Below, piece after piece: positions 29,055 through 49,775 of a stretch of 64,000 bases of DNA. The position numbers and the translations under genes were made by a program. Every line of letters starts with the position of its first letter. The first letter of the stretch is position 1. The notes under the pieces were generated by a model. It had not been told where the DNA came from and searched no databases. It was given only the letters and a program-made list of their open reading frames with translations. Source of the stretch: an uncultured Planctomycetota bacterium (GTDB taxonomy: Bacteria; Planctomycetota; Planctomycetia; Isosphaerales; Isosphaeraceae). Location of the stretch: assembly GCA_963845755.1 (NCBI GenBank), contig CAWJTV010000047.1:32001-96000 (forward strand). The letters run 5' to 3'.

Positions 29055-31100
29055 TCATTCCTGCCGCTCGGTGACCATCGCGACTGGTGCCGAGGACGGG
29101 TGAGTGACGACGGGCGGACGGACGGCCGAGTGGGGCGGCCGGGCTGGCAGGCGGATGAGGAACCGCGAGCCCAAACCCGGCTGGGACTCAACCTCGATGG
29201 TGCCGCCATGCGATGCGATGATTCCGTAGCTGATCGCCAGCCCGAGTCCTGTCCCCTGTCCGATCGGCTTGGTGGTGAAGAACGGCTCGAAGATCCGGCT
29301 ACGGACCGTCGGATCGATGCCGTGCCCGTCGTCCGCGACCGACAGGTCAACCCCGCCGCAGGTCCCGGCGCGTGTACTCACCCGCACCGTCCCACCAGGG
29401 TTGCAGGCGTCCACGCCATTGGAAACCAGGTTGAGCACGACCTGGTTGATCTTAGCGGGATAACAGCAGATCGCCGGCAGGGGCGCCAGATCCTCGATCA
29501 GGGTGACGCCCCGCGCGGCGGCGTGACTCTGGAGGATCCAGAGCGTCGGCCCGACGCTTTGATTGATGTCGGCTTCCTTCAGCTCGGCCTCGTCGAGCCG
29601 GGCGAAATCCCGGAGGTCCTTGACGATCTGCTGGATCCGCCTGAGACCCTCGCGCGATCGTGTCATCAGCGCGGGGACATGCTCCAGCACATAAGTCAGG
29701 TCCATCTGGTCGGCGAGCTCGCGAATGCGGGTCGATAACCCGTGCTGGTGCTGCTCCAGGGTCCCTTCGGCTTCCTGATAGAGACGGATCAGGTTGTGGA
29801 GCTGGCCGACATCGCGCTGCAATACCGCGACGTTGTTGGTGACGAAGGCCAGAGGATTGTTGATCTCGTGGGCCACTCCGGCGACGACCTGGCCCAGGGA
29901 CGAGAGACGCTCGGATTGCACGAGCTGAGCCTCGGCGCGCTTGAGGTCCTCGTGTGCGGCCTGGAGCTCCTCGTGCGCGATCCGCACGGATGCCGCCGTC
30001 CGCGCGAGCTCTTCGGCCGATGCCTGCAACTGACCATGACGTTCTTCCAGCAGCGTCTTGGCCTGGATGAGCTCGCGGGTCCGATCGAGGACGCGACTCT
30101 CGAGCCGCTCGTTGGCGCGGCGCAGCTCCTCTTCGGCTCGTTCGAGCTGGCCGCCGATCCGCCCGGCGAACATGGCGCACAGGAAGGCCGCGATCACCAC
30201 CGCGATCGCCACGGAGCCGAAAGACGCGATCGCCATCCACGAGCGCGGCGCGAGCCAGGCCATCGACAGCGTCAGCCAGTCAGAGACCAGAACGAGTGCC
30301 ACGGTGAACGGGAGGAAGGCGCGAAGCAGCCTGGCACGGATCGAAGAGCCCACCATTTCCCTCAGCGGCGTGGCGGCCGGCCCCGCGGCCCCGACCACGC
30401 CGATGCCCAGCAGCAAAAAACCGACTGCCGTGTTCAAGGCCATCGGAATCAGCGGACCTCCGTAGAGCAGCGGAGCCGCATAGGCGTAGCCCATGACGAA
30501 GATCGTCCCCGAGGTCGCGACCACCAACCCACCGACCCCCGCACGATCTCTCGCGACGGCCCCTCCGGAGCAGGCCAACATCAGGACGGACATGCTCGCG
30601 ACTTCGAACGTCAATGCCGTGAAGAGTGCCATCTTGCCGACCGGGGCCAGGCCGAGTCGTTCGACCGGCGTCCTGAAGAACCAGGTGTTGACTTCGATCG
30701 CGAATGGTAAGACATATTCGGCCAGTCGCAAGCCCGCCAGCATCGCGACGATCATCACAAGTGCGGCGGCGTATCGCGAGCGGATCCGGCCGTTCGAAGG
30801 ACCGGGGAGCGCCACCAGAGCGAAGCCCATCAGCATGAAGGCGATTGCCGTGTTCGGGGCCATCGGAATGAACTGGGGATGGATTCCCGCCAGGGCGCGT
30901 TGCTGGGTGAGCCAGCCGACAAGTGCCAGCAGTCCGATGACGGCGACCGCCAGCCCCGATCCTGTCTTTAGCCTTGTCCAGACGAGTTGGGACACTTCGG
31001 GATCCCCCATCATGACCTGCTTGGCCGCCAGGCATCGGCCGAGGACCTTGAGATCATACGATGAGTGTGATCTGAGCCCGATGGGCTTCGCAAGATTCAA
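29055..31100 (-). CDS. Multi-pass membrane sensor histidine kinase
   Basis: PMAPNTA membrane domain; [22 protein letters not shown] (H box); [36 protein letters not shown]. Confidence 0.93.
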
Positions 31101-31110
31101 CGGAGTCGTA

Positions 31111-33379
31111 CTAACGGTCCTCCGGATTGCTGACCGTAGCGGGCGGCTCGCGGCCTGGCGGGCGGATGCCGGGGGTCACGTCGCCTTCCGTGGGGATCGT
31201 GGGATCGTCGTAGAGCCGCAGGTATCGGTAATAAACTTCCAGCGTTAGCGCGGCGAGCGTCGTGCAGTAGATCCGGCCGCCCTTGGAGCCGTAAAGGCTC
31301 TCATCGGGGTCCCAGCTCCCGGTCTGGTGGCCCGAGGTGGCGCTGGAGGTTGACGATCCGGTCGCGGATGCGGTTGTTCCACCGGGTCCAGGGTTCGCCG
31401 CCATGCTGATAGAGCGCCAGCGTCGCATAATACCAGTAATAGATGTTCGTCGGCCCGCGGTCCGAATCGTTGCGAAGCAGGAACTCGGCGGCCTCGGCAC
31501 TGGCCGGTCCGGGCCCACCGACGCCCAGGAACTGGCGGCAGACCCAGGCCTCGGCGGTCATCGTGGGCGTGACCGGCTCGCCGGGCTGATAGCGCGCCAG
31601 GCCGCTGGACTGTCCCGAGGCCACCTTCTCCAGCCAGAGCAGCGTGCCGCGGCGGACCGACGCCTCGTTGGGGATCGGGATCCCGACCTCCTTGGCCGAC
31701 TTCAATCCCATGACGACCCAGCCGAGGATGCTCGTGTCGCCGACCGGGTGCGCCGGAGCATAGCGCCACGCGAGGCCATCCTTGGCCCGGGCGCGGACCA
31801 CGAACGCGACGGCCCGCGTGGCGGCCTCGCGAAGCCGCGAGTCGCCCGTCAAGGCGTAGCCTTCGCAGAGGGCCAGGGTCGCCATCGCGTGGCAGTACAT
31901 CCCGACAACCCGGCTTCGTCCGCGCAGATCGCCGTCGGGCTTCTGCTCGGACATGAGGAAGTCGAGCCCCTTTCCCACGGTCTCCGAGTATCGTCCCTGC
32001 GTGTGCGTGTAACCGGCCCCCAGGTAGGTCAGCAAGGCCAGGCCGGTCACCGCCGTGTCCGCCTCCCAGTAAGCACACTCCCCGAAACACGTCTCGCCGG
32101 GCGGGCAGTGGCTTGTGAAATCATGTTCTCCTTTGGCGGGCGTTCCATCATCGTAGCGGCCGACTCCGGCGTCCCAGCGTCCATCATCGTCCTGGTGGCG
32201 GGCCAGCCAGTCGAGGGCACGCTCCACGGCGAGCTCGCTCGCCTTGCTGCCGCCCAGGCGCTGGGCCTGGCCGGGACGGTCGGGGTCCAGCCGGGGCTGA
32301 TAAACGCGCGGGATCTCGGCGAGGGTCCTGGCGGGTGGACGTTCCTCGAGCGCCGCCAGGCCGGAGTCGCCGCCGGAGGTGGCGCGCGGCTTCGGTATCA
32401 CGCGATCGAGGGCGAGCAGTCCGGTGGTAGCGGCCTCCGGTCGAGCCGGCGGGACGGGCTCGGCTGAGGCGTCAGCACCCGCGGGAGACGCAGTTCCCGG
32501 GCCCGTGGTGCCGGATCCACTCGACCCAGCACTCGCGCCCAAGGGGCCAAGTCCGACAAGGCCCGCGTCTTCGTTCTCTCCTCGCGCACTCGCCTTGATC
32601 GGGTCGCCGGTGAGTTTGGGGCGGAGTCGAGCGTCGGTGCGGAGCGTTCGGTCTCGTGTCCCCAGGGCTGCCTCGATCGCGCCACGACCGGCACCTCGAG
32701 CCCCACCGGACTCGGCCGGGGATGGTGGCGGCTCCGACGACGCCCGATCCACTTCGGCCAGATTGGGGGGCAGGGGGGGCGCGGGCTTCGGAACCAAGGG
32801 ATCGGGTGTTGTAGTGGGTTCGGCACGAGGGCCGACGACCGGCGGATCTGGCAGGGGCCGCGACGGACGAGGCGTCGCCGTCACCACCGGGATCGGTGGC
32901 GGTAGGACTGGCTCCGGGTCGGGGCTGGATCGTTCCGCGATCGTGGGTCGAGGGGCCGGAATCGTCACGTCCGCCAGCCGGAGCGGCCCCGACGGCAACT
33001 CCAGCCGAGGCGCCGGCGGTGCGGAACTGTCGCTCCCGCTCGAAGGAGCCCGATCGCGCGTCAGCGACGGTCCAACTTCCGGCGGCTTCGACGGTTCGAC
33101 CAGCGGTGCGACCCGGATCCGACGAATATGCGACCGATCTGCCGACTCGTCGGACTCTCCGCGAATCGCCAACTGGACGGCCGGGACCGTGCTGCCGAAC
33201 AGCACGATTCCCAGATGGGCCGCCAGTGACAGCACCAGGCACTTCCGTAACGCCCTTCGCGAGCCCCAGCAGACCCAGACCAGCACCGCGAGCCCCACGC
33301 TCGCCAGCCCCAGCATCAGCCAGGCGCTCAGGTCGGCCCGCAGCAAGAGGAGGAATGTCTCGAGGTCCAGTCCGGTCAT
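31111..33379 (-). CDS. Membrane-anchored prenyltransferase/squalene-oxidase repeat protein with Pro-rich linker; frameshift near 31330
   Basis: SLAAHL N-terminal anchor; AVERALDWLARHQDDDGRW, TGLALLTYLGAG, MYCHAMATLALCE, WRY..GDTSILGW, YYWYYATLALYQ, GSWDP..GGRIYCTTLAALTLEVYYRY. Confidence 0.9.
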
Positions 33380-33551
33380 GTCCTAGTCCTTGACTGCCTG
33401 GTCCTCGAATCCTTGGCTCGTGCCGTCAAGCCGTAGCCACGGGACCCAGGACTCGGGATCAAAGAGCGCATGATACCGGAAGATGCGAACGGATCGCAGG
33501 GGTTTTTCCCGACAGGTCGGGGATTCGGCCGTTTGCCTGTGAACGCCGTCG

Positions 33552-34542
33552 TCAGGATCCGATCTTGCCGGTTTCCGGTCGTTGAGCCGGCTGCGTTCCC
33601 GGATCGTCCAGCGGTTTCAACTGATGGGGCGTCCGGGCCAGAGGGATCGGCTTTGCGGCGGGAGGCGCACTCAGGGCGATGGCCTCGATGGTTTCGGCCC
33701 CGAGCCGGTCCAGGGCCCCGGCCAGCGTCTCGACGTGTGTGAGCACGCCATCATAGGCGACGAGTGCCAGTGTTGCGATAAGGATGCCGGTTGACAGCGG
33801 CGTGATCGCGGCCGCCAGTGCCGGCCCCCAGGCGATCGCCGGCGAGGTCCTCGCGGCGATTCCGGACGACGGGGGAATGGCCTCGAGTGGCGCGCCCCAG
33901 GGCGAAGAGCGTGCCCAGTACGCCCAGCAAGGCCGCCAGGGCCGCGACGCGACGGAGCGTCCCCACGTTCCTTCGGAGCCGCTCCGTCTCGACCCGGTGG
34001 GCCAGGGTCACCGCGCGTTCCAGGTCCGTCGCCGGTCGTCCCCAGCGGCGGACTGCCGCCAGCGCCACCCGCGCCGCCGGACTGGGATTCCGTTCGCAGA
34101 AATCCAGCGCCTGACCACAATCCAGCTTCCCTTCGTGGAGCCGGTCCACGAACCGCGCGGTGAAGTCCGACGGCATCACGCGACGCGAACGGAGCCGGAC
34201 CATCCGCTCCATCAGCACGACGATCCCCATACCGGCGCATGCAACCAGACCCCCCCAGATTACCCGATCCGAGGGAGGCGTACGATCGTACCAGGCGATC
34301 AACCATGCTCCCGCACGCCTCATCCGCGTCAGCATCAGACCAACGCGGCGATCGCGGATCTGGATCGTTGAGATTTCGCTGACACCCACCTGGGCGGAGG
34401 AGATGCTGCGCGGCCGTTGATCGTCCTGTTCGGTTGAACCGGGATGATCCGCAAATCCTGTGCAGGCTGTCAGAAGCCAACAAATGGCTCCCCAGGCGCC
34501 CAGCACGACGATCGAGGCGCCTTTCCGGTTCCGGCGGCTCAT
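33552..34542 (-). CDS. MotA/TolQ/ExbB proton-channel family protein; frameshifts near 33900 and 33750
   Basis: MERMVRL, ETERLRRNVGTL..AALLGVLGT; downstream frames give ALAAAITPLSTGILIATLALVAY. Confidence 0.82.
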
Positions 34543-34606
34543 AGGACGGGTCCCTCCTGGCGAACGAAGTTCGGCGCGGGTCTCCAGACCCCGCCCACTG
34601 CGGGAA

Positions 34607-37600
34607 TCATTGCGACGACTTTGACGTTGGGGAGGCACGCCGGTTTACAGCGTCGCGGCGGGCCCGGGCCGTCGGGGCATCCGGATCCCCGGGAAATCTG
34701 GCGAGGAGCCGTTCATAAGATTCGGCGGCCTCGGCCCACTGATCGAGTCGTTCGTAAACTTTTCCCGCTTCTAGCAGCGCAGCGGCCTGCCAGCGGGGGG
34801 CATTGTAGAGGATGTCGACCTGGAGGAACTCGCGGAGGGCCTCGTGGCGCCGATCCTCGTGGAAGTACGTCTCGCCACGCAGCAACTGGGCCTGTGCGCC
34901 CAGCTCATTCCCGGGTTTCGCATCGATGACGGACTGAAATGCAGAACGCGCCTCGTCCAGACGGCCCTGACCCATGAGGGCCTGTCCCCGCGCATAATCG
35001 AGCTCGGGGATCGACGGATCGCCCGCGGCCAGTTCGGATCGGAGCGACTGGATCGCCGGGATCACGGGCTTCCACCGTTTCCGGACCACCCAGGTTTGAA
35101 TCTGCTTCAATCGAACGACTCGCCGGAACGCCGGAGGATCCTGGGCGTCAGATGGCTCGTCGAGGAGGGCCGTGAATCCGGCCTCGGCCGCGGCGGCGTC
35201 CCCGGTGTTCAGGGCGGACTCGGCGCGCAAGAATCGGGATTCGCGACGGTACGGTGAGTCAGGAAACTCGGCCAGCAGCCGATCGAGCGTGGTCGCGGCG
35301 CCGGCCCAGTCCCGGAGGTCCACCTGGGCGCGCCCCAGCCGATACAGGATCGCGGGGAGCAGGCGCGCCGGCGGGAGTACCCCCCCGCCTTCGGCGCGTC
35401 GGCGGGCTCCTTGACAACCAGGGGTAACAGGAGCCGGATCACGTCCTGATACTGATGATCCTGGTAGGCCGATTCCGCGAGATTGAACCGCGCGTCGGCC
35501 GAATAAGGGCTCTGGGGATACTCCGCCAGGAGTCGTTTGAACACGCGGTCGGCCTCGGCCGGCTTGGCGGCATCGACAAGCGACCAGCCCCACTCGGCGA
35601 GCACGGCGTCAACCGTCGTCCCTGCTTTGGCGAGGGATTCGCGTAGGTGCGGATCAGACACGAGCCGCTCGAACACAGAGGCCGCATCCGCGTTACGGCC
35701 CAACCGGGCGATCAGCCGGGCTCGGGCCAGGACAGATCGGAGTCCCTCATCGGTCGTGGAGAATCGTTCCGCGACGCGCTCGTAGGCCGCGAGGGCGTCG
35801 CCGGTTTGGTTGGCGGCTTCGAGCGCGCGGGCCTGCGCCAGGGCGATCTCGGGCGCGATCGGGTCGCCTGGGGCCATTGCGAGGAACGCGGCGAACGTCT
35901 GGGCGGCCTCGCCCGGCTTGTTAAGTTCCGCAAGTGCCCGCCCAAGTCCGGCGAGCGCGCCGGAGTCTCAGGGCCGGCTCGATCTCCTTGTCGCCTTGTG
36001 AGGGCACCAGCCGAAACTGCTCCGCCGCCCGATCCGGTTGATGGGCAGCCAGTGCGGCCTCGCCCAACCGGAGCCGCGTGCGGGGGAGGGCCTTGCTGGC
36101 GGGGAACTGGTCCACCATCATGGCCAGGGTCTTCCAGGCGTCGTCGGCCCGGCCGGCCCCGAACTGAGCGACCGCCAGATGCGCCAGGGCGTACTCGGCG
36201 ACGTCACCTCGAGGATTCGCGGCCAGGTACCGCTCCAGCGGCCCGAGTGCCTGGGCGTATCGGCCCGCCTCGACCTGTTCTTGACCGAGAAGGAACAGCG
36301 CATCGGCGGCGACGGTGTCGTTTTTCGACTCCGAGAGGCGTGCGAGGAGGGCATCCGACTCAGCAGATCGGCCCAGGGCGCGGTACACCAGGGCGAGCTC
36401 ATAGCGCGCGTCCTGCGCGGCCGTCGCGGAGAGTGCGGGAGCCGAGCCCTCATTCGCGCCGGGAGGCGGGTTGAGGAGGGATTCGAGGATCGTCGCCGCC
36501 GCGCGGTGGTCGCCCGTCTTCGCCGCGGCTCGAGCCGCGATCAGTTGGACATCGCCACGCAGGGGACTCCGCGGGAATCGGGTGACGAATTGATTCGTCA
36601 GCTTCCGCGCCGTCGGGGAATTGCCTCGTTCGAGTGCCGTCTGGGCGGTGCGCTGCAAGGCATCGTCGGCCCAGGCATCGTCCGGGTCGGCTTCGACGAC
36701 CTTGAGGAACAGTTCCTCGGCCTCGGCCAGGCGCTTGAGTTTCCGCAGGGCCTCGGCAGAGCGGAATTGCAACGCGGACATCAAGGGGGACTGTGGTGAA
36801 TTCTTCGCGGCGGCCTCCAGAGTGGCCAGGGCGTCCGCCGGGTGGTTCTGTTCCAACTCGATTGTCGCCAGCTCCAGCGCGGCCTGAACCCCCAAAGCCT
36901 CCGCGGGAAGGCCGGTCAATTTCTTGAGGAGCACCTCGGCTTCCGCCGACCGGCGGAGCCGATGAAGGGCCTGGGCGCGTCTTAGCCACGCTTCGTGCTT
37001 TAAGGCGCTGTCGGGCGCCGCCCGCTCCAGGGCCAACATCGCCGCAACGACCTCCGCGAACTGCCCCGCCGCTTGATGGATCGCTCCCACTTGCAGCCAG
37101 GCGCGGTCCACCCATTCCGGGCCCCCTCTCTGCGTCAACTCCTGCAATATACGGAGTGCCCGATCGTGTTCTCCCAGCCCGGCGAGTGTCCGGCCCAGGC
37201 CGTACCGGGCTCGATCCGCCAATTTGGCGCGCGGAAACTTCGACAAGGACCGTTCATAGGCGATCTTCGCCCCGGCGAGATCCTTCAACCCGTAGCAGAC
37301 ATCCCCCAGGTAAGTCCAGGCGGTCTCGAGCGCCGAGTGATCGGCTTTCGTCGCGGTGAACGTTTCGAGGGCCTGACGCGCGGCGGGTAGATCGCCCATC
37401 AGGTAAGCGAGTTCCCCCAGGCGGTAGCGTGCGGTCAACGCCCGGGAATCCGCCGGCGCCTCTTTCAGAAACGTTTCGAAGGCCCGTCGGGCGTCCTCAT
37501 GTCGCCCCTGGTACAGCCGGGCGTTGCCAAGCCCGAAGTGCGCATCAACCCGATCCAATCCCTTCGGGCCGGTCAACAGGAATCGATCGTATTCCGCGGC

Positions 37601-37873
37601 CGCCAGGTCGAACTTCCGCTGACGGAAGAGGCCGTGGGCGAACTTCAAAGCGTCCGGGATCGTGCGCGGGGCGGTTCCGAGGTTCTCCCCGTCGCGCGCT
37701 TGCGGAGCCGACGATGAGCCGTTGGATTTCGACGAGGCATCCTGGCCGATCGATTCCCGCGCCATCAGGGCGATCACCGCCAATACCGCGGGGACCCAGA
37801 TGAGATCGATGGTGATTCCGCGTTTCTCCACTCGGGCTGACGACGGCAGAACCTCCTTGCGGATACGGGACAT
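34607..37873 (-). CDS. Large exported tetratricopeptide-repeat protein; frameshifts near 35950 and 35370
   Basis: Many TPR units (AHFGLGNARLY, ARYRLGELAY, ARFNLAESAY, AQLLRGETYFH..ALREFLQVDILY..WQAAALLEAGK) after a hydrophobic N-terminus. Confidence 0.88.
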
Positions 37874-37967
37874 TTCCGACTCCTTTGTCCTATTCAAGGC
37901 TTCTCGGAAAGGACGCCGCAACGTCGCGCCTCATCGTCGCGGCAGACCGTGTCAGCCACCCGCGAGG

Positions 37968-38183
37968 TCAAGCGGTGTCCCCGTCGCCCGGAGCCTCTTC
38001 ATCGGGTGGGTTGCTGAGCATGGTCATGATGTGCCGGGCCAGATGATCCTCGATCTCGCGGTGGCGAGGAACTGGTTGGGACACCCCGGTGACCGGATTT
38101 CGGTACCAGTCGTGCCGACCCCCATGCCGGACCAAGACACACCCCAATCCCGCTATTGTGCGGATCAGGTCGACCCGCTTCAT
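37968..38183 (-). CDS. hicA: HicA family toxin
   Basis: MKRVDLIR..GCVLVRHGGRHDWYRNP..QPVPRHREI. Confidence 0.92.
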   Translation of the reverse strand: MKRVDLIRTIAGLGCVLVRHGGRHDWYRNPVTGVSQPVPRHREIEDHLARHIMTMLSNPPDEEAPGDGDTA

Positions 38184-38371
38184 GGGATCACCAACTCATC
38201 GACCTTGCGGATACCAGGCAGTTCGCCGCTCGTCAGGTCCCGGTAGAGGTCGGCCAGATGTTCCTTCAGGTCATCCAGCGAGTCGCCCTGGGTCCAATAG
38301 TCGGGGTAATCGAGCAGATATCCGAGGAAGGCGTCCTCGTCTTGCCAGTGGATGAATTTGATGATCTGCAT
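38180..38371 (-). CDS. hicB: HicB family antitoxin (short, no DNA-binding domain)
   Basis: WQDEDAFLGYLLDYPDYWTQGDSLDDLKEHLADLY; ATGA overlap with hicA; GGAGG RBS. Confidence 0.88.
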   Translation of the reverse strand: MQIIKFIHWQDEDAFLGYLLDYPDYWTQGDSLDDLKEHLADLYRDLTSGELPGIRKVDELVIP

Positions 38372-38674
38372 GCGGATCCTCCGGAGTCTGCGACTCTCGA
38401 TCAGAATTGTAACCCGATACCGGCCGTTCCGCCAAGCCGCACTCCTTCCTGCCGCGACCACCATGTCATGCCGGTCGTGCCATGGATTATCATCGAGCAA
38501 TAGGGAGGTGCAACACCGCTCGAAAGCCACGTGCGGACACCGGACCAGGATGCGATCCTGGACTCAAGAGGATCGAGCGCAACGCTCGCATGCGTTAAAC
38601 TGGTAGGTGAGGCCAGTCTCTCCCTCCCGTGCGACGAGCCGGCTCCGACTCAGATCGAGATGGAATCCCGACCG

Positions 38675-41109
38675 ATGAGCCAGGAACTGCATTACACCTC
38701 GGTACCTCATGGTTTGAAGCCGGGCAGCCGCGGCTTCGGCGCGGTCGGCGTCACCGCCGATCTGCCGGACCTGCTCGCCGAGCGGCTTGAGAGCCTCAGC
38801 GGTTACCAGGTCGTGTATCCGCCCGGGGATCCTTCGGCTGCGCTCAACCCGGTCGTGCACGCGCACGTGAGGTTAACCGTCGGGGGCAAGGTGCTCGATG
38901 TACTGTCGCGGATCGGTCCGGCGGGGCTGGACTATTCGGGGCGGCCGAACAAGTACGCACACCACGTCGTTCTTGACGCCGACGAACGCCCCCAGGGCGG
39001 ACCCGCCTGGTTGCTGAGCCAGCCGGGATTCCTCCAATCGGCCTGGACAGGCGAGGCGCGAATCCTCCACGAGGGGCCTAAGGTCCCGCCCGGCGACCGG
39101 CCGGCCGGCATCGCCGAAGCCTGGCAGGCTCTGACTGGCGACGCCGGTTGGGCCGGCGTAATGGCCGAGTCCTATCTGGCCGACCCCCGCCGACCCCTCT
39201 TCCTCGTCTTCCGACCGGGAATGGACCTGCTGCCCCTGTTTGTCGAGGCCATCGCGCTGTTGCCGGTATCACGGCGCTGGGAGGTCGAATTCAGCACGTA
39301 TTTCACCACGCTTCCCCAGGGTGTCACCAGTATCTGGAGGGGTGTCCTTGACGGCTCGGCCGAAGCCAGGAACGCCAGCCGACTTCCGAACGCCCTGATC
39401 GTCAACCTCTGCCGCCCCGCCGGACGCGCCCGAGGAAATGCCCTCGTCCATCTCGCCCGCACGGGGGAGCGCCGAGAGACGGCCGGCGCGGAGAACGCGC
39501 CCTCATCCACCGAGTCGGGTCGTGGGGCGCCCCGGATGGCCGGTCCGCCACGCCTCCATCCCGGCGAGCGCGCTCGCGGATCCAGGTCAGGCGCGCACGG
39601 CATTCCGGATCCTCTCCCGGATCTCGCCGCGCGGATGGCGGCATCCGCACTGGTACTCTCCGACGGCAATCTCAATCGGAAACGACGTCGGTCGCGCACG
39701 ACCCTCGCTGCGACCGTCGTGGCCGTCTGCCTCGTCCCTCTGATCGCCGCTGGACTCTTCTGGTCGCCGGCCCTTCGCAAGCAGTTCGGATTCGAGCCCA
39801 CGGTGAGACCGTCGACCGCCGGTCTCGTCGGGCGGCTTCCCCCATCGACCACGACCCCCATCGCCCGCCACGACCACCCAAAAGAATCCGAGGAGAAATC
39901 CGCTCTCAAGGAAGCCGCGACGAAGCCAGGACCGCCGCCGCTCCCGACTGTCGCGACCTCGCCAGAGGCCGTCCGCAAATCGGAAGCGAAGGTGTCTCCG
40001 GCACCCGAACCCCCGGCCCAGCAACCGCCATCCCGATCCCCTCCACGCCCCGACCGAGTGGACCGGCGATCGTGGCGTTCGCCCTCCCGGATATCCCCAG
40101 GTCTCAGTTCGGTGGCCCGGTCCGGCAAGATTGCGAGCTGACCCTCCCGGAAGATGCGGGCGACCGGCTCGAGATCCTCAACGCCCCAGGGCTCCGGCTC
40201 GTTCCACCGAGCGGATCGAAGCCCTGGGAGATCGCCACAAGAGCCGGGATCAGTCGCCTCGATAGTCCCTCAACCCTCGCCGAACTCAGTCAGAAGGACG
40301 CGCGGACCTGGCGGTTCGGCTGGACCAAGGACGCGAGCAAGCACTCAGTCCGCGCCGACGAACTCAGGGACACGGTCTTGAAATTCCCGGCCCGAGACGG
40401 CCGTACCCTCTTCGCCTTGCTGCGCGCCGTCGAACCCCGCGACGACCGACCGCTGGCGATCGTCACGAACCAGCCCCTCCTGTTCGACCGCCTCGAGCCT
40501 CGAACCCGATCGGTCGTCTGGACGCGCCATCCCGAGGCCCTCTCGGGGACGAAGTGGAAACTGATCATCAATCGTTGGAGGCTGGTCATCTCGCGTCCCG
40601 ATTCCGACAAAGAACCCACGAGGCGCGCGTTCGAGTCGATAAGCGGCGAGTCCAGAAAAGACCCCCAGGTGCCGGGTGCGACGAGCGCGCGCGACGTGAT
40701 CCCCGGCGAGGTGACCCTCAAGCTGTCGATCGATCCCGAGAGTCTCGATACGATCATCGTGCGGCTTGTCCCTGACCGCGACCGGGCGACCGAGGGTCGC
40801 AAAGAGCGCGCCGGCCGTCGGAAGACGCTACAGGAAGACACTCCCAAGGACGGGGAGGGCCGCGATCGCGACCCCATCGCCTACCGCCGCGACAAGCTCC
40901 GAGAGCTCGAAACGGCCGGAACGAAGGATGAACCGGCGATCAAGACGATCAAAGAGGAGATCCGTGGTTTGAAGGAGCTTGACGAGATCCAGCAGACCGA
41001 AGAGCTGCTGGCGAAGCCGGCGCGAACCGAGCTCAGCGTGGTCATCGCCATGGAACTCGACGACTCGACCATCCTGGAGATCGCCAAGATCGGCGACTTT
41101 GCCGATTAG
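38675..41109 (+). CDS. GAP1-N2/GAP1-M-like domain protein with TM helix and C-terminal extension; frameshift near 40060
   Basis: MSQELHYTS..GLKPGSRGF..LESLSGY..SRIGPAGLDYSGRPNKYAHH (GAP1-N2-like, recognised from memory); WQALTGDAGWAGV..EAIALLP..RRWEVEFSTY; TM ATVVAVCLVPLIAAGLFW. Confidence 0.75.
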
Positions 41110-41222
41110 TCCGTTGTAAGTCTTCCCTTCTGTGGCACCGATCAGGAGTGGGACGGAAGCGGCGAACGCCCGGCGGCTCAGAAGAACGGACCACGGACCC
41201 TGACCACTGACCACTGCGTAAA

Positions 41223-44174
41223 ATGACCGATCACTATCAAATCATCGACCAGATCCGGAGTATCCTGCACGCCGGCGACCACGGGCGTAACGGCCGTCTC
41301 GACGGGTTGGCGTCCGCCTATGCTGCCGCCTGCGACGAGGCCACGCAGCGGTTGGGGCGTTGTCACCGGCTGTTGCGGCAGGGGCTGCGATCGGAGGCGA
41401 TCCAGCTCGCCGAGTCTGCGCCGAATTTGCTCGACACCCTGGCGGCGCTCGATTTTCCCGAGCGGGCGGAGTGGGACGAGGTCGTGCAGTTCCACGACCT
41501 GACGCCCGCGCCGAAGCTGCCGATCGAGCCGGCACGCCTGCTCAACGAGGCGTACGCGGAGGAGGACCCGCTTCAAGACCTGCTCCGGCGACATCGCCGG
41601 CTGGCGTTGCAGCGGGCACCGCTCCGGTCGCGGATCGGCGTCCTGCGCCAGCTCGCGACCGAGGACCCGGGCAATGCGATCTGGTCGGATGATCTGCGGG
41701 CCTTCGAGGCGGTCCGGCTGATCCAGATCCAGGAGGAAGCGACCGAGCTGCTGCGCCATCACGAAACGGAAGCGATCGGCCGGCTGGTGGTGGAAGTCGA
41801 GCAGCCCGACTGGTCCGAGCCGCCGCCGCGGGCGCTGGTGCAATCCTTGCGGAAGCTCGACGCCCAGCTCCGCGGCGAGCGCGCCCGGGGTGTCCTCGAG
41901 GACGTCGGTGACCGGCTCGATGAGGCCCATAACGCGCGCGACCCGATCCGCGGACGGCTGGCGCGCCAGGAGTGGGTCCGGCTGGCCAATGCCGTGGCCC
42001 TGCCGCACGACGACCCGATCGCCGAGCGCGTCCGTCCGGCCCTCGACTGGCTCGACAATGAGGATCAGCGCGACTCCCAGAGCCGCCGACACGAGGAGGA
42101 CCTGGTCGCTCTGGGCCGCTTGCTCGATTATCCGGGAGCAATCCGCCCCGCCGAGCTGGAACGGCTGGCTCACGCCGTCGTCAGTCACGGACACGGTATG
42201 CCCGATGGACTCCAGCAGCGCTACATCACCCGCCTCCAGGCCGCGGAGTCCGCCCAGACGCGACGCGTCCGGCTGATCGCCGCCGGCTCGGCCGCTGGGG
42301 TCCTCCTCCTGGGAACCCTCGTGTATTACGCCGTCCGCGGCCAGGCTCGCGCCCAGGAGGCCAGTAACACGGCCGTCGCCATCAGCGACATGCTCGAGGT
42401 CGGCGAGCTCGACCACGCCGTCTCGCTCTTGAAGAAGCTCGAGGCCGCCGACCCGCAGCTCCTGACCTATCCCGCCATGGTCGCGGTCCGGGAACGCGTG
42501 GACCTCGCCGAGAATCAAGAATCGGACCGGGCCTTGCGGTTCGACACGGCGATGCGCGAGGCCGAGTCCGCCCCGATCTCGGTGACGCCGCCCCCCGCGC
42601 TGGAATCGGCGCGCTCCCTGGCCCGGCTCGACACCGAGAAAGCGGCCGTCTCCAACCTCGTGCAGAGCCGGGCCGAGAAGATCGGCGCCGACCAGACGCA
42701 GCGGGCCAAGGAGCTAAATCCGCGCCTCGACGAGATCGGCCGGGCGGTCGATCGGATCGAGAAGCAAGCCGAAACGACCGGACCGGCGGCGGCCGACGAG
42801 TCCGCGATCCTCGGCCCCCTGGCCGACGCCCAGCGCACGCTGGCCGCCGTCGATCCCGACGTCGCCCTGGCCGGTGCGGAGGTCCAGGACCGGGCACGAC
42901 GCCTGTCGGACCGGCTCGAGGCCGTACGCAATCGCCTGGATCGGCGCCACCTGCAATCCCAGCTCGAGGAGGCCATCACGACCGTCGTCGCGTATTCACC
43001 GAACGCGCGTGGATTCACCGCCTCGACGGAGTACGTCGCGGCCCTCGAGTCCTACATCAAGTCCTTCCCCGATCTGCCTCGCTCGCGAGGGTTCACCGAG
43101 ACGCTCCGGGATCAGCTCCTGTGGAATGCGGTCGCCCAGTGGGACCGGCTGGCGGCCGGCTGGAAAGGCGGTCAGCCCGCGGTCGGCGCCCGAGAGGCCA
43201 AGGTCCGGAGCGAACAGTGCAAGCAATTCCTGACCCAGCACCCCGGCTCGCCCGACACCGATCGCGTCGCCGCCTACCAGCGCGCCATGGAGGCCGTCGC
43301 CCACCGCATTCCCGACGGCGATGGCGCGCTCTCCAAGGTGCATAACCTCCTCACCGACCTGCTGGTCGACAACCTCTGGATGGTCACCGTCAAGCCACCA
43401 TTCGCCGAGGCAGCCCGGCGCTACTACCTGACCCAGAGGCCCCCGGCCGCCGCGAAGTCCTTGCGCTACCTGGTCGGCTTCGACGGCAAGGAGCGGACCC
43501 TCAAGGTGGTTGCCGACTGGATCGAGCGAACCGACATCGCGCCCCAGACGAAGATTTCGGCCCGGTTCAAGCCCAAGCTCTTCCAGGAGCCTGCCCAGAT
43601 CGATTGGGAGACCGTGATGGTCGACCTGATCGACCAGATCCGCAACCAGCCGGAGATCGACCCGATCCTCCAGGTCGCGCTGCTCCGCAACGTGCTCCAG
43701 TCGGCGGTCGAGGGGAGCGAACCGCTCCGCGGTGCCCTCGGCGGCTTCAAGAAACAGGTGGACCAGGCCGATGTGGACACGAACCTCCCCTGGATGGATC
43801 CGGAGAACGCGGAATCCGAACGGATGCGCCCCAAGGCCGCGGGGTTCATTCGCTCGCTGCCCGACCTGACCGCCGCGCGCAAGGAGGCGGCCGCCATTCG
43901 CGTCCGCCTCGATCGCCTGCTCGCGCGCCACCCGAAGCCGATCGGTTGGCTGGCCCGTGACGCCGAGGGTTGGCAGGTGCGGAGTGGTTCGGTCGTGCCT
44001 CAGGAGGGAACCCTCTGGACCATCATTCCCGGCGAAGCGGGTCGCGGCGCCTGGCGGAAAGTTGGTGTCATCAACCAGGCGAAGCCGAAGCTCTCCCTGA
44101 CCGACGACCCCGCGCTGGCCGAAGGGCGTCCGATCTTCGTCACATCCGCCGATGCGGAGGACATGGGGCCTTGA
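41223..44174 (+). CDS. 983-aa hypothetical alpha-helical protein with one central TM helix
   Basis: Long intact ORF with host-like codon usage; TM LIAAGSAAGVLLLGTLVYYAV near aa 355-375. Confidence 0.85.
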   Translation: MTDHYQIIDQIRSILHAGDHGRNGRLDGLASAYAAACDEATQRLGRCHRLLRQGLRSEAIQLAESAPNLLDTLAALDFPERAEWDEVVQFHDLTPAPKLPIEPARLLNEAYAEEDPLQDLLRRHRRLALQRAPLRSRIGVLRQLATEDPGNAIWSDDLRAFEAVRLIQIQEEATELLRHHETEAIGRLVVEVEQPDWSEPPPRALVQSLRKLDAQLRGERARGVLEDVGDRLDEAHNARDPIRGRLARQEWVRLANAVALPHDDPIAERVRPALDWLDNEDQRDSQSRRHEEDLVALGRLLDYPGAIRPAELERLAHAVVSHGHGMPDGLQQRYITRLQAAESAQTRRVRLIAAGSAAGVLLLGTLVYYAVRGQARAQEASNTAVAISDMLEVGELDHAVSLLKKLEAADPQLLTYPAMVAVRERVDLAENQESDRALRFDTAMREAESAPISVTPPPALESARSLARLDTEKAAVSNLVQSRAEKIGADQTQRAKELNPRLDEIGRAVDRIEKQAETTGPAAADESAILGPLADAQRTLAAVDPDVALAGAEVQDRARRLSDRLEAVRNRLDRRHLQSQLEEAITTVVAYSPNARGFTASTEYVAALESYIKSFPDLPRSRGFTETLRDQLLWNAVAQWDRLAAGWKGGQPAVGAREAKVRSEQCKQFLTQHPGSPDTDRVAAYQRAMEAVAHRIPDGDGALSKVHNLLTDLLVDNLWMVTVKPPFAEAARRYYLTQRPPAAAKSLRYLVGFDGKERTLKVVADWIERTDIAPQTKISARFKPKLFQEPAQIDWETVMVDLIDQIRNQPEIDPILQVALLRNVLQSAVEGSEPLRGALGGFKKQVDQADVDTNLPWMDPENAESERMRPKAAGFIRSLPDLTAARKEAAAIRVRLDRLLARHPKPIGWLARDAEGWQVRSGSVVPQEGTLWTIIPGEAGRGAWRKVGVINQAKPKLSLTDDPALAEGRPIFVTSADAEDMGP

Positions 44175-44335
44175 GGAAGGGGCGGGAATAACTTCCCGGA
44201 CTTCTACGGCGCGGGCCTCCAGGCCCCGCCGCCTGGCGGACCGAAGAGCCCCCGCCCACGTCGGGATTAGCGACGTTCGGATGGCCAGGTGGCAAGATCC
44301 GGAGACCTCGCGAATACCCGGCGCTACCCCATCTT

Positions 44336-44539
44336 GAATCGGGAATCCTGAGTCAGGAATCCTGAATCGGGAATCTCGAATCTCGAATCGGGAATCTCGA
44401 ATCTCGAATCGGGAATCTCGAAATCTCGAATCGGGAATCTCGAATCGGGAATCTCGAATCGGGAATCTCGAATCGGGAATCTCGAATCGGGAATCTCGAA
44501 TCGGGAATCTCGAATCGGGAATCTCGAATCCAGAATCGC
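44336..44539. repeat. Tandem heptamer array, 29 units (GAATCGG/GAATCTC, mostly alternating as a 14-mer)
   Basis: Read directly from the sequence; one unit has an extra A. Confidence 0.97.
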
Positions 44540-44616
44540 TGAGGATACGCGTTTCATTCCCACGCAGGACGCGGGCCGAAACGAGACCACGACACAGACT
44601 CGAGACATCACCGACC

Positions 44617-45432
44617 ATGTCAAGCGAAGAGGCAACCCGCGGTTGGTACGTGCGAGCGCGAGGGCGCGTGCTCGGTCCGATGACCTGGGCCCAGCTCCAG
44701 TCGTTGCGCGATCGCGGCCAGCTTGCAAGGTTCGACGAGGTCTCGCAGGACCGACAGAGTTGGACCGCCGCGGGTCGAGTGCCCCGGCTGTTCGCCCAGG
44801 GGGAGGCATCGAGTGGACGTGCACCGTCGCCGGCGCGGTCGAGCGGCTTGAACGATTACATCGTGCTCAGCGAAGACGACGTGGACCACGATGCGATCAC
44901 GGCCGGCCCGCCGATCGAGGGCGACGCCGAGTGGTACTTCGCCCGCGACCGGACGCAGCAGGGGCCGGTGCGGCTCTCGCAACTGCAACGCATGGCTGAC
45001 GCCGGCGAGATCGGACCGGACACGCTCGTCTGGAGGGATGGTCTAGCGCATTGGACTCGCGGCTCCGCGGTCGAGGAATTGCGATTCCCGATCCGCCTCG
45101 ACGCGATCGCGGCGGCTCAGGCGGACGTGCGCACCGCCCCGTCGGCCAGTGTGACACTCCCACCGCGCCAGGCCCGCGACGCAGTCCAGCCGACCAATCC
45201 TCCCCACCGCACGAGCATCCTGGCGATCAACAGCCTGATCTTGGGAGGCTTCTGGCTGTTCGGACTCGGCAGCCTGGCGGCGATCGTGCTGGGCGTGATC
45301 GCGATGCGTCAGATCGCCCGATCACAGGGGACGCTCACCGGCAGGCGGCTGGCCATCGCCGCGATCATTCTGGGAATCGCGGGATTGGGGCTAACGCTTG
45401 GCCTGCTGCTCTCCCCGCGCTCACCAGCCTAA
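44617..45432 (+). CDS. Tandem GYF_2 (DUF4339) domains plus DUF4190-like membrane anchor
   Basis: WYVRARGRVLGPMT..L; WYFARDRTQQGPV..L..GEIGPDTLVWRDGLAHW; TSILAINSLILG..AIVLGVIAMRQI..GRRLAIAAIILG. Confidence 0.88.
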   Translation: MSSEEATRGWYVRARGRVLGPMTWAQLQSLRDRGQLARFDEVSQDRQSWTAAGRVPRLFAQGEASSGRAPSPARSSGLNDYIVLSEDDVDHDAITAGPPIEGDAEWYFARDRTQQGPVRLSQLQRMADAGEIGPDTLVWRDGLAHWTRGSAVEELRFPIRLDAIAAAQADVRTAPSASVTLPPRQARDAVQPTNPPHRTSILAINSLILGGFWLFGLGSLAAIVLGVIAMRQIARSQGTLTGRRLAIAAIILGIAGLGLTLGLLLSPRSPA

Positions 45433-48847: not shown

Positions 48848-49193
48848 TTCGACCTCCGCAATGGACGTCCCACAAACCTACTACAAATGTAGCAAGTTGC
48901 GGCGAATCGAGCAAGGGCCATCCCCTGTTTTGCCATTTTTCGCGAAGCGAGACGCTCGAGATCGCCGATCGCTTGCGTTGCGCACGCCGCAGGGGAGCGC
49001 CGTGGCCAGGTCAGGAGAACCGCGCCGAACTGTGACGACTTAAGGACTGTTCCGTGTGGTCGGAAAGAAGGTTCAACTGGCAGGCATTTTCGACTTGGAC
49101 CAGGAATCGGTGTTCCCCGGTGTTCCCCAGAGCAGCGAGTAGCTGGTGGCGTTTGTTTGAAGGATGATCGTCGCAATGGCAACTGCGACATGG

Positions 49194-49509
49194 CACGTGC
49201 GGCTGCCGCCGCGTGAGCAACACGAGGCGATGGAGGGGATGCGGAGGTTCCTCGATAGCGAGGAGGGCCGTCGGGTTTATGCGCGGCGCAGCGGGATCGA
49301 AGGGACGATCTCGCAGGGAGTGCGGTCGTTGGGGTTGCGGCGTGCGCGGTATCGTGGCGAGGCGAAGACCCACTTGCAGCATGTGGCAACCGCGGCAGCG
49401 ATGAACGTCAGTCGCATCACCGACTGGTTGGAGCGCAGACCCGCTGAGCCGACGCGGAAGTCGCGTCTCGCACAGCTGGCGGCCGGAATGGAATTCGCCA
49501 ACAGTATCC
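49194..49509 (+). pseudogene. IS1182-family transposase C-terminal remnant with right terminal inverted repeat
   Basis: YARRSGIEGTISQGVRSLGLRRARYRGEAKTHLQHVATAAAMNVSR..W; TIR ggaattcgccaacagtatcc at 49490-49509; N-terminal part absent. Confidence 0.88.
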
Positions 49510-49775
49510 CAACGTTTGCTTTACCGAGGAATCGAAGCTCACTTGCCGCCATGATCGCGACACGCTCGGTCGCGTGAGATAGCATGAATGGGGTCGATGA
49601 CGCAGATTGCGTCAGTATTTATAATATATGTAAGAATTATTTATATTGCAATTATCGGAATTGTACAGCTTGATATGCCGATCGAAAAGGCGATTTTTGA
49701 TCCATCGCTCACCGACTTACATCAAATCGAAGTTGTCACACGTGAAGTGGCAGCGACATCTTACAGGACCTAGCC

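Follow-up and report, generated by a model that had tools for sequence, protein, structure and literature searches.

A planctomycete GAP1-N2 membrane cassette whose DO-GTPase is probably encoded at a separate locus

We analysed a 64,000-nucleotide stretch of a planctomycete genome of the family Isosphaeraceae (the window, G000:C47:32001-96000, taken from the 14.3-Mb genome G000, which is 88% complete) and found that its three-gene cassette headed by a GAP1 protein (genes A, B and C, positions 38675 to 45432, plus strand) is a split-locus variant of an already described system, neither a new system nor a GTPase-less one. The cassette is probably the membrane half of a GAP1-N2/DO-GTPase system whose GTPase is encoded elsewhere in the genome, likely acting in trans, with GAP1 predicted to be a true GTPase-activating protein (GAP) acting through Arg90. 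The original prediction had recognized three co-oriented genes, as the open reading frames (ORFs) bear out, but regarded them as a candidate new system without a GTPase partner. Its claim of novelty is superseded by the definition of GAP1-N2 DO-GTPase-centric conflict systems by Kaur et al. (2020; PMC7159879), who already describe a planctomycete theme comprising a gene with a GYF pair and transmembrane (TM) segments and a TM-fused GAP1 (section 29). In that study GAP1 is typically fused to the GTPase or encoded after it, an anti-invader function is predicted for such systems, and GAP1-N2 systems are reported from 904 organisms (Table 1).

No DO-GTPase or remnant of one was detected within the 64-kb window by phmmer --max and tblastn; the probable cognate DO-GTPase is an orphan zinc-ribbon gene at G000:C15:209221-210529 (minus strand; locus L040:6218-7529) with no GAP1 nearby, consistent with the alternative, already allowed for in the original prediction, that the GTPase is encoded elsewhere. 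Profiles identify three GAP1-N loci and three DO-GTPases in the genome, comprising two linked pairs, the window cassette and this orphan. One linked pair lies in a paralogous cassette on contig C11, ordered zinc-ribbon GTPase, GAP1 (67% identical to that of the window), B and GYF gene. Its GTPase is 64% identical to the C15 paralog and matches PF19993 at E 5.8e-5 and 23.3 bits, under the 27-bit cut-off; a genome search with the Pfam DO-GTPase2 model returned only the third GTPase, on contig C5, and the C11 and C15 genes were found by ORF reading and tblastn. The C5 GTPase was rejected as partner of the window cassette as it has its own GAP1-like gene downstream. The C15 GTPase is 85% identical to the GTPases of L007, where the gene is 8.4 kb upstream of GAP1, and L008, where it adjoins GAP1, and the GAP1s of these two loci are of the window type and are the closest GAP1 relatives of the window protein. 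Against full-length canonical GTPases its identity is 46-72%. The C15 orphan and its orthologs carry GSPASGKS, DNAGE, SKLD and two CxxC, and G1, G4, both CxxC pairs and a G3 containing the Walker-B glutamate are retained in every full-length orphan GTPase that was aligned.

Some features of the other loci in this genome can be noted. The C11 cassette (G000:C11:1432494-1424810, L004) is complete with several frameshifts, faces a second GYF-pair/TM gene on the other strand, and has the GTPase motifs GAIGSGKS and DNSGE, its relatives having GxPxSGKS and DNAGE. The C5 locus (G000:C5:151997-146913, L005) is a distant DO-GTPase2 system with unnamed flanking genes, a GTPase with a long C-terminal extension and a short GAP1-like gene that retains a D-x-x-G-R motif. 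In the C15 region (209218-216873, L040) a stand-alone gene for a LigD 3'-phosphoesterase (TIGR02777) precedes the orphan GTPase, an arrangement also present in G056.

The two genes are distributed together across the family. GAP1 and the GTPase were both found in the same 44 of 121 family genomes and neither in the remaining 77 with the queries used (many genomes being incomplete), which, together with the GTPase directly upstream in the C11 paralog, argues against a GTPase-less variant. By coordinates, the 50 family GAP1 loci divide into 36 linked and 14 split (G000, G056, G041-G044 and G074-G081); six genomes have two copies, and no GAP1 could be matched to two additional GTPase fragments (G075, G089). 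The GTPase is directly upstream in 23 of 34 related loci and not in the other 11, and whole-genome searches for ten GTPase-free loci recovered a GTPase ortholog of 78-88% identity elsewhere in nine and a contig-end fragment in one. With G000 included, 13 of the 14 split loci have an unlinked C15-type GTPase (78-96% identical) in their genome and the 14th a contig-end fragment; no GAP1, B or C was identified in ten regions of 2.8-14 kb fetched around orphan GTPases. An assembly artefact as the source of the split was rejected, since in G043 and G042 a single long contig holds the two genes, separated by 8.4 and about 66.6 kb respectively, and the GTPase of a same-genus genome lies at the orthologous site. 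The gene nadD adjoins the orphan GTPase in three genomes, whereas in two others it follows the cassette and in G000 it is found 20 kb beyond it; this differing placement suggests more than one rearrangement. At phylum level GAP1-N2 is present in 26 of 301 genomes; the GTPase is directly upstream at 17 of 18 close loci, and a P-loop gene is adjacent within a 1.5-kb flank at six of eight distant ones. Very distant planctomycete GAP1-N domains (L101-L109, 18-25% identity) retain D/E-x-x-G-R and are mostly beside P-loop genes. As the split clade illustrates, surveys based on neighbourhood only will miscall split cassettes as GTPase-less and their GTPases as orphans.

In maximum-likelihood trees of 43 GAP1 and 42 GTPase rows (L038, the G077 fragment and the unfetched linked family genomes being left out), the split GAP1s form one clade and the orphan GTPases a matching one, with the linked locus of G072 sister to each. 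Ultrafast bootstrap support for the clade including G072 is 99 (GAP1) and 100 (GTPase), and for the split-only clade 77 and 87. Both halves of the split system are under purifying selection: Nei-Gojobori ratios of nonsynonymous to synonymous substitution (dN/dS) are 0.05-0.13 for orphan GTPases (five pairs) and 0.09-0.21 for the N/M cores of split GAP1s (four pairs), with one linked pair giving 0.11 for the GTPase and 0.18 for GAP1. Between G000 and G056, dN/dS is 0.14 and 0.27 for B, 0.38 for C, and 0.57 and 0.24 for the linker and outer part of A.

These data bear on the reading that the cassette is a decaying remnant or works independently of a GTPase, the orphan being retained for some other role. 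Its appeal lies in the variable neighbours, nearby insertion sequence (IS) fragments and frameshifts in both gene A and the C15 GTPase. Gene A is split over two ORFs in the assembly (38675-40141 and 40072-41109), with the frameshift near 40020-40040. Seven relatives have a single gene A ORF of 773-871 aa, and frame changes affect 11 of 49 genes of the G000 assembly probed with proteins of relatives (9 of 45 when the system's own genes are excluded), so the frameshift is probably an assembly error. No genome among the 121 has one gene without the other, the split pair represents the only copies found in seven genomes, dN/dS is low and the ORFs are intact in relatives. As 14 genomes share the split and purifying selection acts on each half, the cassette is not a decayed copy, an outcome that the original prediction had named as one that would undo it, and we consider the remnant explanation largely refuted and very improbable.

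Upstream of gene A, a conserved putative promoter motif (38570-38601, plus strand) ends in a -10-like hexamer (38596-38601). Of the 14 split loci, 13 have such a hexamer 69-90 nt upstream of the GAP1 ATG, as does the linked sister locus L008, versus 1 of 26 canonical linked loci in the same range, figures to be read with the caveat that the pattern was picked after inspection and that related loci are not independent. The GTPase-GAP1 gap is also about 200 nt in L008 versus 9-117 nt in most canonical loci, and a sigma-70 scan called no promoter for the cassette. Given its occurrence in split loci and L008 and its rarity in canonical loci, the motif is likely the promoter of a GTPase-free transcription unit, and we infer that an internal promoter freed the cassette from the GTPase operon. 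In several split loci (L010 9230-9634, L012, L013, L014, L027) a gene that we take to encode a BlaI/MecI-like repressor is transcribed divergently from GAP1, the two having a common upstream region.

Gene A (38675-41109) has the GAP1-N2/GAP1-M N-terminus and TM segment that had been proposed for it. Pfam matches GAP1-N2 (PF20013) at aa 1-123 (E 3.7e-27) and GAP1-M (PF20014) at aa 150-239 (E 8.7e-14), and both domains are matched in all 29 aligned homologs. Pfam GAP1-C has no match in gene A or these homologs; conserved sequence runs to about aa 265. A cytoplasmic linker follows, then a TM segment at aa 344-362 by hydropathy (39704-39760), a proline-rich stalk and a variable outer domain that in the fold model is beta-rich with a helical hairpin and yields weak beta-sandwich matches. 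Basic residues precede the TM segment. Among 120 GAP1 homologs, 118 have a TM segment after the core, and in 102 of these 118 lysine and arginine are richer before than after it. On the basis of TM positions and this bias, the GAP1 core, the first 345 residues of B and the GYF pair of C are predicted to be cytoplasmic.

Within GAP1-N2, the loop D86-x-x-G-R90 (38930-38944, plus strand; Arg90 codon 38942-38944) contains the predicted arginine finger. Arg90 is invariant in 120 of 120 homologs and in all 18 phylum rows covering the column. It is likewise unchanged in all of 33 diverse rows with identities as low as 18%, in which only S9, G20 and R90 are invariant. We modelled residues 1-270 of the window GAP1 with an intact same-genus GTPase, GTP and Mg, obtaining a complex score of 0.77 versus 0.44 for the best control. 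The score mark used is reached by 116 of 157 solved complexes and by 2 of 215 mismatches, a calibration that is roughly applicable here. Runs agree in at least 81% of contacts, with partner pLDDT of at least 89, and profile searches found no close PDB relative by sequence for either chain, including no solved DO-GTPase. The R90 loop is modelled against the P-loop and switch I of the GTPase, with R90 contacting K171 and A109, and G20/F21 contacting P108 and E225 (expected error 1.5-2.0 A). By alignment of the G motifs, P108/A109 correspond to Ras G12/G13 and E225 to Q61. Its invariance and its modelled position on the P-loop and switch I suggest that R90 is the likely arginine finger of GAP1. 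Having Arg90 and a named GTPase partner turns DO-GTPase/GAP1 systems into a simple in vitro test.

An alternative interpretation of the same interface is that GAP1 is a nucleotide-exchange factor (GEF) or effector and Arg90 a structural or binding residue rather than a catalytic one. GEFs and effectors also cover switch regions, and most longin/DENN proteins are GEFs (PMC3521125, PMC12290439). Yet GAPs usually combine an invariant Arg on a loop at the P-loop with a second loop on the residue equivalent to Ras Gln61, as modelled here, and R90 is one of only three invariant columns in the 33 diverse rows. We regard the exchange-factor or effector role as unlikely.

The position of the arginine invites comparison with longin-type GAPs. 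In FLCN, SMCR8 and NPRL2 the catalytic Arg is in the longin domain beside a GP motif that precedes strand 2; the Arg and the motif are both shared by Asgard longins of the FLCN/SMCR8 type (PMC12290439, PMC8213707). Like these arginine-finger GAPs (see also PMC8336837), GAP1 is a three-part protein whose small alpha/beta N-terminal domain bears the candidate catalytic Arg. Near the Arg it has a conserved Gly immediately ahead of the second strand (followed by Phe or Tyr in GAP1, as opposed to their GP motif), and in the complex model it touches the two switch regions. They differ in being heterodimers acting on Arf, Rab or Rag GTPases, where GAP1 is a single membrane-anchored chain modelled on a DO-GTPase. 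Judged partly from a low-confidence model, GAP1-N2 has the order Gly before the likely second strand, helix, two strands, Arg loop and strand. The residue following invariant Gly20, a position whose equivalence to that of the GP motif is itself predicted, is mostly Phe or Tyr and never Pro, so the GP motif is absent. The N-domain of the sole GAP1 fold model has pLDDT of about 27-51, and fold searches with it gave matches filled by other domains. Longin/DENN homology was not detected in PDB profile searches, Pfam scans or scans of the genome with Folliculin and uDENN models, and Atlas had no usable GAP1 match once its own families were skipped. Kinship of GAP1 with longins thus fits the motif pattern without search support and is tentative. 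Equally speculative is the fuller proposal that the GAP1-N domains of bacteria share ancestry with the catalytic domains of FLCN, SMCR8 and NPRL2 and are themselves arginine-finger GAPs of longin type, with the module domesticated in this clade into a two-locus switch with its GTPase in trans. If true, the DENN-like GAP module would have a counterpart that is widespread in bacteria and is coupled there to a receptor complex in the membrane, and the link would bear on the origin of the mTORC1 and C9orf72 GAP complexes.

Gene B (41223-44174, plus strand) encodes 983 aa of no named family and proved, as proposed, to be helical with one TM segment, at aa 349-367 by hydropathy (42267-42323) and preceded by basic residues. 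A helical N-terminal part of ~345 aa, predicted to be cytoplasmic, is followed by the TM segment, a long helical stalk and an alpha/beta C-terminal part predicted to be outside. No Pfam family scored above cut-off. With the model (pLDDT 89, pTM 0.55), Foldseek gave no match at E<=0.001 and VIA nothing beyond generic three-helix bundles, results that concern the whole-chain fold and say nothing on a new fold, and the Atlas matches of B were limited to unnamed clusters (best 0.88). The three genes are kept together in the neighbourhood survey, with B after GAP1 in 27 of 27 related loci that are long enough (seven others being too short) and C after B in 22 of 24 (three further loci end inside B). 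B is directly downstream of GAP1 in all ten distant planctomycete genomes as well, and the family comprises 2015 representatives at E<=1e-30, fragments included. B is therefore a large unnamed family that appears to be a constant third component in planctomycetes.

Gene C (44617-45432, plus strand) has the tandem GYF_2 domains (E 1.2e-24) and DUF4190 anchor (E 7.6e-13) previously ascribed to it, with two TM segments at the C-terminal end, and likely acts as an adaptor. Binding of its GYF domains to the long proline-rich linker of A, which the original prediction had entertained, is unlikely because the linker follows the TM segment and is predicted outside, and the GYF domains precede theirs and are predicted inside. 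A shorter proline-containing linker before the TM segment of A is a plausible GYF ligand: most window-clade orthologs have a G-P-P-x-P-like stretch in this cytoplasmic linker, and a PPxP-like pattern is present in 70 of 118 GAP1 homologs, a count with no background frequency behind it. The GYF region of C also matches the GltJ model (E 1.5e-13, far below the model cut-off). The GYF domain of GltJ has micromolar affinity for a proline-rich sequence (PMC11135422). The Myxococcus GltJ/MglA/MglB switch resembles the present system in having an inner-membrane protein with a cytoplasmic GYF, a proline-rich partner and a trans-envelope complex controlled by a small GTPase (PMC11135422). Only the GYF domain is shared, however, as the GTPase family differs, MglB is a roadblock-fold GAP, and in the GAP1 system it is the GTPase that carries the zinc ribbon.

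Compared with the systems of Kaur et al. (2020; PMC7159879), the cassette shares GAP1-N2 and GAP1-M with a C-terminal TM segment and outer domain, a planctomycete host, a zinc-ribbon TRAFAC GTPase with a Walker-B glutamate and a GYF pair fused to a TM-rich region. It departs from them in that the GTPase is unlinked in 14 loci, being neither adjacent nor fused in the window cassette, and that the constant third gene is B, of which sections 27, 29 and part 1 of 35 make no mention. The main text makes no claim of GAP activity, arginine finger, longin or DENN for GAP1, and its readable supplements do not contain the term 'GAP1', the check having covered material other than the Figure 1 source data, which may list such loci or B. 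Our literature search, with most subscription papers outside its scope, returned no paper on split loci, gene B or GAP activity of GAP1 and no mechanistic follow-up of DO-GTPase/GAP1 systems; DO-GTPases were otherwise mentioned only in passing, in two papers.

In the mechanism that we favour, the G20-F21 and D86-R90 loops of GAP1 would cap the P-loop, switch I and Walker-B glutamate of the GTPase, and in the resting state GAP1 would hold the GTPase in its GDP-bound form. Phage, envelope damage or a neighbouring cell may then act as a cue on the outer domains of A and B and loosen the GAP1-GTPase contact through the TM helices. Once GTP-bound, the GTPase would drive the cytoplasmic helical domain of B and the GYF adaptor to assemble as a response complex. 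The internal promoter before GAP1, already in the linked sister lineage, would likely have let the operon split. The putative defensive role is that predicted by Kaur et al. (2020).

The same split architecture and direct binding could alternatively serve a domesticated module for envelope or surface signalling (adhesion, cell contact or polarity), comparable to Myxococcus GltJ-MglA-MglB, rather than for exclusion of invaders. Gene content is fixed without effector turnover, the GAP1 and GTPase trees broadly match, a system stably divided over two loci would be harder to transfer whole, the GYF domains of C resemble that of GltJ, which binds its proline-rich partner in a small-GTPase-controlled complex, and there is no convincing PADLOC match. 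Set against this are the patchy distribution (44/121 family and 26/301 phylum genomes), the second copies in six genomes and the fast-changing outer part of A (dN/dS 0.24-0.57 versus 0.09 for the N/M domains). The C15 GTPase is also close to a cluster, just upstream on the same strand in G000, that we take from its motifs to be Dnd-like (phosphorothioation). We consider a signalling module clearly less probable than the mechanism favoured above.

Several observations weigh against a split GAP1-N2/DO-GTPase system of defensive function with Arg90 as its arginine finger. The partner in the complex model is the GTPase of a same-genus genome, 96% identical to the C15 gene, and not the C15 copy itself, which like gene A is frameshifted in the G000 assembly; close cousins of the true partner also pass the complex test, so that cognate specificity is not shown, and one control still reaches 0.44. 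The model does not demonstrate catalysis. It lists no ligand contacts and hence no R90-phosphate distance, a point that also favours the GEF or effector reading, since such a protein could use the same GTPase surface. It is also conceivable that in G000 the two cassettes are both served by the C11 GTPase. The systems described by Kaur et al. (2020) feature FNIII proteins and, in many cases, a pair of GTPases, and neither was seen here, where each cassette has one GTPase. No enzymatic effector was found, and the single PADLOC match is weak (E 0.0013) and over a low-complexity linker, so defence is not directly supported. The split clade does offer natural cognate and non-cognate pairs within one genome on which specificity could be assessed.

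Among neighbouring features, the hicBA pair described upstream consists of a HicA gene (E 8.5e-9 in Pfam) with an upstream ORF on the minus strand (37968-38371 together). The ORF at 38180-38371, which we presume to encode a HicB-like protein, has no match in Pfam, NCBIfam or PADLOC. The pair was rejected as part of the cassette, hicA and hicB being matched in 0 of 34 and 0 of 10 related loci, and is a neighbour outside the system. Further upstream, window positions 29055-37921 hold a minus-strand operon that encodes prenyltransferase/squalene-cyclase-repeat proteins and includes a MotA/ExbB-like gene and a long TPR gene spread over several frames, unmatched beside related cassettes except for one marginal TPR match. 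The IS debris noted downstream is represented by a DDE transposase fragment at 49164-49574. Between B and C lies a heptamer tandem array (44331-44538, plus strand; period 7, 28.9 copies), which is a genome-wide repeat of about 206 merged loci and not specific to the system. Such arrays across the genome are of the GAATCGG/GAATCTC type, and a similar array occupies the same position in a same-genus genome.

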